Sequence record: PV691511.1
Length of the DNA: 64,000 nt
Strand: one strand, 5' to 3'
Origin: Escherichia phage WPEC2
Part shown: positions 15,871 through 16,657 of the stretch, in pieces
Layout of the letters: each line of letters starts with the position of its first letter
How positions within the stretch are numbered: the stretch's first letter is position 1
Position numbers and translations under genes: made by a program
The notes under the pieces: generated by a model
The model's database searches: none
What the model was told of the DNA's origin: nothing
Seen by the model: the letters and a program-made list of their open reading frames with translations, nothing else

Positions 15871-16176
15871 TTAGAATTCCTCTTCAGTCTTCTGTCGGTT
15901 TTTGAAGAATACTACGTCATACACCTCTCCGTAACCATCATTTACACAGAACATAATAAAACGATCATCTTCTGCTGTTGGTGCGCGATGTTCAAGTTCA
16001 AAACTTTCAATAAAACCGCGTGAATTTACGTAGTAGATTTCATCCTCACCAGAGAACATCCAATCCCTGTCTATCAGATAGAAAGCTAAACTCACAGGCG
16101 ACAACTCATCCTTCACAGAATCATTGTACAGCATGTGGGCTGCAACTGCCAAACTTAAAGTCGTATTGTGCCGCAT
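15871..16176 (-). CDS. hypothetical small acidic protein, paralog A of a tandem pair
   Basis: Shares TLSLAV, YRAP, EDD and VVF blocks with the adjacent ORF. Confidence 0.5.
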   Translation of the reverse strand: MRHNTTLSLAVAAHMLYNDSVKDELSPVSLAFYLIDRDWMFSGEDEIYYVNSRGFIESFELEHRAPTAEDDRFIMFCVNDGYGEVYDVVFFKNRQKTEEEF

Positions 16177-16484
16177 TACATCTCCTCGTCGGACTTCAAG
16201 GCTTTAGAGAATACTACATTAAACGTTTCACCGCAACCATTATTAACATAATACATGATGTAATTGTCATCTTCGTCTACAGGCGCACGATACTCCAGTT
16301 CATAACTATACAAATTAGAATTACTTGTGCAACCTTGTGGATACCAAAAGTAGAGTTCATCCCCAGATTCTACCCATTTAAGACCAGTCCGATCTTCAAA
16401 CACCAATGTAGATGGGTTTTCTGAATCTTTTACAGCTTCTTCGTAATACTGGTGCACCGTAACTGCTAATGATAATGTACTCAT
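16176..16484 (-). CDS. hypothetical small acidic protein, paralog B of a tandem pair
   Basis: Sequence similarity to 15871-16176; ATG at 16484 overlaps the stop of the upstream small ORF (TGATG). Confidence 0.5.
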   Translation of the reverse strand: MSTLSLAVTVHQYYEEAVKDSENPSTLVFEDRTGLKWVESGDELYFWYPQGCTSNSNLYSYELEYRAPVDEDDNYIMYYVNNGCGETFNVVFSKALKSDEEM

Positions 16485-16657
16485 CACGCCTCCAAATAGT
16501 GTTTACAAATGACAAAACGCCATGTTTGTTTATAATAGTCTCTTTTTTCAAGAGCCTCTTTGTAAGAGGGTATACGTTGCGACAGAAGCATCCATTCACA
16601 ATCTGCACCCATTCTTCCATAAAGCGCGTAACGGATGTTACTTTGTTTATCTCCCAT
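16484..16657 (-). CDS. small hypothetical protein (57 aa), not in the ORF track
   Basis: Hand-translated ORF MGDKQSNIRYALYGRMGADCEW... preceded by RBS TAAGGAGG; preferred over overlapping track ORF 16396-16620. Confidence 0.4.
   Translation of the reverse strand: MGDKQSNIRYALYGRMGADCEWMLLSQRIPSYKEALEKRDYYKQTWRFVICKHYLEA

Follow-up and report, generated by a model that had tools for sequence, protein, structure and literature searches.

Within a 64,000-nucleotide stretch of Escherichia phage WPEC2 (sequence record PV691511.1; hereafter the window), positions 15,871 to 16,657 hold three small genes read from the minus strand. The first encodes a basic protein of 57 amino acids (aa), and behind it lie two genes for acidic proteins of about 100 aa that resemble each other, here called paralog B and paralog A in order of transcription. 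The surrounding region is 100% identical to that of Escherichia phages WPEC1, WPEC4 and WPEC6 and 98-99.6% identical to many genomes of Phapecoctavirus (subfamily Stephanstirmvirinae), and the locus lies in a minus-strand operon with closely packed genes, in a phAPEC8-like E. coli myovirus of that genus. All three genes are annotated coding sequences, labelled "hypothetical protein", in the GenBank/RefSeq records of this phage group. An earlier sequence-only reading of the locus had described the 57-aa open reading frame (ORF) as unannotated, which does not hold, as the frame is an annotated coding sequence in these records and is catalogued as phrog_2381. It was probably missing from the first ORF track because it is shorter than 60 aa.

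Gene order, junctions and promoter match

All genes of the operon lie on the minus strand, and transcription proceeds from a 65-aa gene through the 57-aa gene, paralog B and paralog A to a gene for a secreted 120-aa protein. The features are as follows.

16929..16958 (-): predicted sigma-70-like promoter match, TTGACA-18-TAGAAT, agreeing with the consensus at 11/12 positions, in the 82-bp gap 5' of the 65-aa gene
16701..16898 (-): 65-aa gene, the first after the promoter match; phrog_27862, with a weak match to phrog_10169
16663..16669 (-): Shine-Dalgarno sequence AAGGAGG, 5 nt ahead of the ATG of the 57-aa gene, read from the sequence
16484..16657 (-): 57-aa gene, 174 bp, basic product with an isoelectric point (pI) of 9.0; phrog_2381
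16489..16493 (-): Shine-Dalgarno sequence GGAGG for paralog B, within the final codons of the 57-aa gene, read from the sequence
16176..16484 (-): paralog B, 102 aa from its ATG, pI 4.08; phrog_7812
15871..16176 (-): paralog A, 101 aa, pI 4.46; phrog_7812
15508..15870 (-): 120-aa protein with an N-terminal signal-peptide-like segment; phrog_5474

The sequence-only reading had pointed to a ribosome-binding site ahead of the 57-aa frame and to a TGATG overlap with the next gene, and both are present. At this junction (16482..16486) the TGA of the 57-aa gene and the ATG of paralog B share the A at 16484, and the GGAGG of paralog B lies 4 nt ahead of that ATG; the ORF list gives a GTG start one codon further 5'. 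The B/A junction, TAATG at 16174..16178, is a one-base overlap of the B stop and the A start with GAGGAG upstream, and the stop of paralog A directly abuts the ATG of the secreted-protein gene (TAAATG). Both the 57-aa/B and the B/A junctions thus have the stop/start overlap of a translationally coupled pair. Overlapping stop and start codons together with internal Shine-Dalgarno sequences are the arrangement that translational coupling requires, and one gene may depend on the translation of the previous one. Because paralogs B and A each have a Shine-Dalgarno sequence of their own, independent initiation is also possible. Three antisense or alternative-frame ORFs in the same interval, at 16020..16424 (+), 16469..16696 (+) and 16396..16620 (-), had no PHROG match and were rejected as spurious.

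The promoter match is one of eight sites with at least 11/12 agreement in the window, as compared to 2.5 expected from shuffles, and the 82-bp gap that contains it is 100% identical in phAPEC8 and 97.6% identical in nepoznato. This match to the consensus suggests that the operon may be transcribed early by the host RNA polymerase. Another sigma-70-like match (ATGACA-16-TATAAT, 11/12) lies at 16509..16536 on the plus strand, antisense within the 57-aa gene, and probably arose by chance, the coding sequence there being AT-rich.

An old paralog pair in a divergent block

Aligned by BLASTP over their full length, paralogs A and B are identical at 46 of 103 positions (45%, E=3e-24). Both match the phrog_7812 profile, A over residues 4-100 (E=9.8e-17) and B over residues 1-102 (E=3.8e-40), and no third copy of the family was found in the window by a family profile search. 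The shared blocks named by the sequence-only reading (TLSLAV, YRAP/HRAP, EDD and VVF) all occur in the pair, which, with net charges of -13 for B and -11 for A, matches its description of tandem small acidic paralogs. A neighbor-joining tree makes the A clade sister to the B clade (bootstrap 78%) and leaves the orthologs from phi92 and Citrobacter phage Tr1 outside, as would fit a gene that duplicated inside the Phapecoctavirus lineage and whose copies then diverged for a long time. The proposed local duplication therefore stands as to true paralogy but not as to age, since the event, as judged from 45% identity, is old rather than recent.

The two copies differ in distribution. Genome comparison shows paralog B to be the copy conserved in synteny. 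A single phrog_7812 gene is present in phi92, Tr1 and metagenomic relatives alike, in the same neighborhood, which continues from the B-family gene through the secreted protein, a 120-aa gene and a DUF4326 gene and ends at a UvrD-type helicase. The ratio of nonsynonymous to synonymous divergence (dN/dS) of paralog B is 0.01-0.2. A B-type gene is found at at least 60% identity in about 70 records, and paralog A at at least 95% identity in 35 phage records. phAPEC8 and nepoznato lack paralog A through a clean one-gene indel, and on such comparisons paralog A is an accessory one-gene cassette, present in about half of the genus.

Identity of each gene to the window at the DNA level was compared for three relatives.

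65-aa gene (flank): phAPEC8 98%, nepoznato 99.5%, phiWec179 74%
57-aa gene: phAPEC8 72%, nepoznato 90%, phiWec179 68%
Paralog B: phAPEC8 93%, nepoznato 68%, phiWec179 79%
Paralog A: absent from phAPEC8 and nepoznato, phiWec179 98%
Secreted-protein gene: phAPEC8 64%, nepoznato 67%, phiWec179 94%
120-aa gene (flank): phAPEC8 98%, nepoznato 98%, phiWec179 93%

Within the block, the 57-aa, B and secreted-protein genes of phAPEC8 and nepoznato have 64-93% identity to the window, as against 98-99.5% for the 65-aa and 120-aa genes on its flanks. phAPEC8, the type phage of the genus, has the same gene order and the same overlap in its gp232 and gp233 (AFU62803 and AFU62804), and its B protein is 99% identical to that of the window; it differs in lacking paralog A and in carrying a 57-aa allele of 67% protein identity and the secreted-protein allele of 64% DNA identity. 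Between the window and phiWec179, synonymous divergence (dS) is 0.07 for paralog A and 1.19 for the adjacent paralog B, a difference indicating that A was recently exchanged by recombination. The allele of the secreted protein follows A, with ∼94-100% DNA identity in phages that have A and ∼65% in those that lack it; paralog A, as read from these alleles, travels by recombination together with one allele of the downstream secreted-protein gene. The phi92 homolog of the secreted protein, gp204, carries a SignalP annotation in its record. The pattern of the block is typical of accessory, fast-exchanging phage regions.

Family relatives, fold and the 57-residue domain

When the phrog_7812 family profile was searched against 1.84 billion representative proteins, 92 clusters were recovered at E≤0.001, and a scan of IMG/VR gave only five loci. 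The family is confined to phages, with known members in Stephanstirmvirinae, in the Eneladusvirus jumbo phages and in some further large myoviruses. Its proteins almost all have lengths of 90-110 aa, with a few bearing differing N-terminal extensions. Conserved positions comprise an N-terminal LxxAV helix, one Trp, a YxLE motif, the EDD loop and a DNGCGD hairpin followed by VVFxK; in A and B, the conserved acidic EDD loop is accompanied by an acidic C-terminal tail. No universally conserved potential catalytic pair is present in the family alignment, as the Cys is replaced by Tyr in A and the His is missing in one subgroup.

Structure prediction, which the sequence-only reading had suggested, gave a confident AlphaFold2 model of paralog B (predicted local distance difference test, pLDDT, 92.4; predicted template modeling score, pTM, 0.83) with a helix at residues 3-17 followed by six strands. 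The family is accordingly modeled as a compact fold of one N-terminal helix and six strands. Comparison of the B model with solved structures found no resemblance, and in the BFVD viral structure library its neighbors were all uncharacterized phage proteins. One weak neighbor, Vibrio phage nt-1 R9TFH0, is labeled DUF7415, but this candidate was rejected (root-mean-square deviation 10 Å; template modeling scores 0.61/0.37), and no sequence match to DUF7415 was found in A or B (Pfam, E up to 1) or in 83 distant family members. Searches of Pfam, NCBIfam and PDB sequences with A, B, the 57-aa protein and these 83 members returned nothing above noise, with matches to G-alpha and TPR at E values of 0.005-0.08 taken as chance, and neither A nor B had any Pfam match at E up to 1. 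A search of a literature library yielded nothing relevant on these proteins or on anti-defence in Stephanstirmvirinae.

The 57-aa protein matches phrog_2381 over residues 1-56 (E=2.2e-21). Compared to the nepoznato allele, its gene has a dN of 0.06 and a dS of 0.39 (ratio 0.155), and compared to phiWec179 a dN of 0.196 with saturated dS; the dN/dS values for phAPEC8 were invalid and not used, its allele being offset by one codon from the rest. Homologs from distant phages all keep the motifs Y-x-L-x-G-R-M-G and T-W-R-x-V unchanged, and GRMG and TWRxV are common to the phrog_2381 members of RaK2, phi92, Tr1 and PKM.Hi.22.6. On this evidence the 57-aa frame is a real, conserved gene, and its product is a small basic domain. 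This domain occurs both alone and at the N terminus of larger proteins.

RaK2 ORF304, 48 aa: phrog_2381 is the whole protein (stand-alone)
phi92 gp205-type protein (P0011): phrog_2381 at residues 1-46 (E=8e-18), phrog_7812 at residues 61-158 (E=3e-42)
Citrobacter phage Tr1, 280-aa protein (WNL63397): phrog_2381 at residues 1-53, followed by phrog_10169/DUF7244 repeats
Salmonella phage PKM.Hi.22.6, 224-aa protein (WKV17131): phrog_2381 at residues 16-64, with a gamma-glutamyl cyclotransferase-like (GGACT/AIG2) domain

The second of these joins the two families of the window. phi92 gp205 (CBY99634, 160 aa), like its orthologs in Justusliebigvirus, starts with a 57-aa-type domain of 46 residues (phrog_2381) and ends with 100 residues that are orthologous to paralog B and syntenic with it (43% identity, phrog_7812). 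Downstream of the gene come the secreted-protein and 120-aa genes, as in the window. Unlike the window, phi92 encodes a single fused polypeptide in place of two overlapping genes and has no second paralog. Throughout the genus Justusliebigvirus this in-frame fusion is fixed, and its sequences make up a cluster of 142. The GGACT fusion shows that the phrog_2381 domain is a reusable module also found on an enzyme partner, and Salmonella phage 7-11 has an N-terminal phrog_2381 fusion to the GGACT/AIG2 domain as well. The domain is further found in many phages that lack the B family, among them RaK2, Grimontviridae and Felix O1-like phages. As for the 65-aa gene of the window, its product and three internal repeats of Tr1 WNL63397 share phrog_10169, both weakly, and show short pairwise similarity (E=0.001). 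As WNL63397 begins with a 57-aa-type domain, the 65-aa and 57-aa genes may also be linked.

Other family members have other partners. The Eneladusvirus proteins (Yersinia phage fHe-Yen9-03 g355 and Erwinia phage pEa_SNUABM_44 gp352) have the same ∼100-aa domain, with LxxAV, W, EDD and DNGCGD retained at 30-37% identity, but their upstream partner is a Cys/His-rich 120-aa protein (CxCGH...CKYCxC; for example fHe-Yen9-03 g354, L006:1631-1993) and not a 57-aa-type protein. In a metagenomic protein (P0040), the N-terminal part of this Cys/His-rich protein is fused to the phrog_7812 domain, a second, independent fusion of an upstream partner. In Tr1 and two metagenomic relatives, the place directly 5' of the phrog_7812 gene, held by the 57-aa gene in the window, is taken by a DUF7296 gene of 117-135 aa. 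The Pfam match to DUF7296 was shown for Tr1 (L005:2151-2504) and one of the relatives (L012:2094-2501), and the 119-aa gene of the other (L011:2132-2491) has no recorded match. In the window itself, the neighborhood of the locus showed no DUF7296 gene.

Possible roles of the operon

Our best account of these observations takes the locus as an accessory hot-spot encoding two or three early, non-enzymatic proteins that act by binding, in which the 57-aa domain would serve the acidic family as a partner module; the functional part of it is what we infer. The operon would be made early through the host RNA polymerase, in keeping with the promoter match. The 57-aa protein and paralog B probably cooperate, most likely as a complex of small basic and acidic subunits, and the reason for proposing that they act together is mainly that the phi92-type fusion is fixed in Justusliebigvirus. 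Since the family has no conserved catalytic pair, A and B would probably act by binding a host or phage macromolecule and not by catalysis. The block as a whole may have an accessory host-interaction or counter-defence role, with paralog A as a variant of altered specificity. We are highly confident of the descriptive part of this account, namely that these are real genes, that A and B are paralogs, that A is accessory and that the two families occur fused. The functional part is doubtful, and the two taken together make an account that we put forward tentatively, at slightly worse than even chances.

An early, non-enzymatic role in host interaction or counter-defence is a plausible candidate function. 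Its sole indirect support is the divergence of the block between otherwise near-identical genomes, which suggests such a role. The proposal of the sequence-only reading that these are host-takeover or anti-defence factors found no direct support, as no match to a characterized family or solved structure was obtained, and the anti-defence reading is a guess.

Several points weigh against our best account. The model of the natural fusion (P0011, from a shallow alignment) reached a pLDDT of only 68 and a pTM of 0.47, with a disordered linker and no confident packing of the two domains. The 57-aa and B alleles recombine independently, as in phAPEC8, where the B protein is 99% and the 57-aa protein 67% identical to those of the window, and other relatives have a DUF7296 gene rather than a 57-aa-type gene 5' of the B-family gene. 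Alleles that do not covary and a different upstream gene elsewhere argue against an obligate, specific 57-aa/B pair. Fusing genes joined by TGATG needs a change of one base only and could be tolerated without any functional link, and the early timing depends on a consensus match.

An alternative holds that the three genes are functionally unrelated neighbors, that the phi92 fusion is a tolerated one-base accident at the TGATG junction and that the 57-aa domain, as a promiscuous module, is independent and has a role of its own. Stop and start codons that overlap are routine in the close packing of small phage genes, phrog_2381 occurs in many phages without the B family, the partners ahead of or fused to B-family genes vary (DUF7296 in Tr1 and the metagenomic relatives, the Cys/His-rich protein in Eneladusvirus), the 57-aa and B alleles recombine independently, and the fusion model shows no packing. 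What it explains poorly is that the fusion is fixed genus-wide, in the cluster of 142 sequences and in many independent genome records, with family motifs kept in both halves, and that the two families are adjacent or fused in both Phapecoctavirus and Justusliebigvirus. We regard it as possible, with odds of under one in three. A more restricted alternative, that the 57-aa ORF is a mere leader frame delivering ribosomes to paralog B and makes no functional protein, would account for the one-base overlap and for the Shine-Dalgarno sequence of B within its 3' end. It is close to refuted and extremely improbable, given the strong phrog_2381 match (E=2e-21), purifying selection at a dN/dS of 0.155, invariant residues across distant phages, the survival of the domain in three different fusion proteins and the Shine-Dalgarno sequence that paralog B has for itself.

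Two further explanations concern the acidic family, and we consider both improbable to a similar degree. T7 Ocr and T4 Arn are small acidic early anti-restriction proteins, and paralogs A and B, which resemble them in small size, strong acidity, phage origin and probable early expression, could be DNA mimics of this kind whose negative surface blocks restriction enzymes or other DNA-binding host proteins. Net charges of -13 and -11 in ∼100 residues (pI 4.1 and 4.5) make the pair strongly acidic, a property that is not specific to mimics, and the conserved acidic EDD loop, the acidic C-terminal tail and the position behind a sigma-70-like promoter match would all suit such a role. However, many small phage proteins are acidic, the DNA for a part of the acidic tail doubles as the Shine-Dalgarno sequence of the next gene, and Pfam searches with A, B and the 83 family members gave no match to the Ocr, ArdA or Arn families. 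Nor was any sequence similarity to Ocr or Arn detected, or any fold match to a solved structure, of a DNA mimic or otherwise; the structures of both Ocr and Arn are in the PDB. The other explanation assigns phrog_7812 to phage DNA or nucleotide metabolism instead of host interaction. In relatives, the B-family gene lies in a syntenic series of an AAA_28 gene, a PnuC-type nicotinamide mononucleotide transporter, the B-family gene, the 120-aa protein, DUF4326 and a UvrD-type helicase, and the same helicase is found downstream in the window. Against this, motifs for nucleotide binding or catalysis are absent from the family, half of the genus does without one of the copies, and divergence is high between otherwise near-identical genomes.

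A bolder form of the binding-protein account, which we think unlikely, though less so than the two explanations just discussed, would make the phrog_7812 domain a new-fold, non-enzymatic effector of large virulent myoviruses directed at some host factor or at a defence system. The partners that stand upstream of it or at its N terminus (the 57-aa phrog_2381 domain, the Cys/His-rich protein, DUF7296 and others) would be interchangeable adaptors that set the target or regulate the effector, and paralog A would be a second effector of altered specificity, exchanged as a cassette.

As it stands the finding matters little, as tandem duplicates of small early phage genes are commonplace and these genes are already deposited and catalogued as hypothetical proteins. 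Three points may be of use in screens of phage accessory genes. The phi92-type fusion links the 57-aa domain to the acidic family and so provides a concrete, cheap interaction hypothesis, and this domain is met again at the N terminus of proteins whose other parts are unrelated, among them a gamma-glutamyl cyclotransferase-like enzyme. Naturally occurring phages with paralog A (such as Mt1B1_P17 and WPEC1) and without it (such as phAPEC8 and ESCO5), together with the divergent block, are ready material for comparisons of host range or across defence panels.

Near the block, a 180-aa ORF at 14602..15144 (-) has sub-threshold LAGLIDADG_3 and HTH_38/Myb-like matches. At its site, Mt1B1_P17 and phAPEC8 instead carry a 122-aa DUF4326 gene annotated as "NrdA-like", and most relatives lose DNA similarity at this ORF, with their matches beginning at query base 147. 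The arrangement looks like a gene replacement of the homing-endonuclease type.
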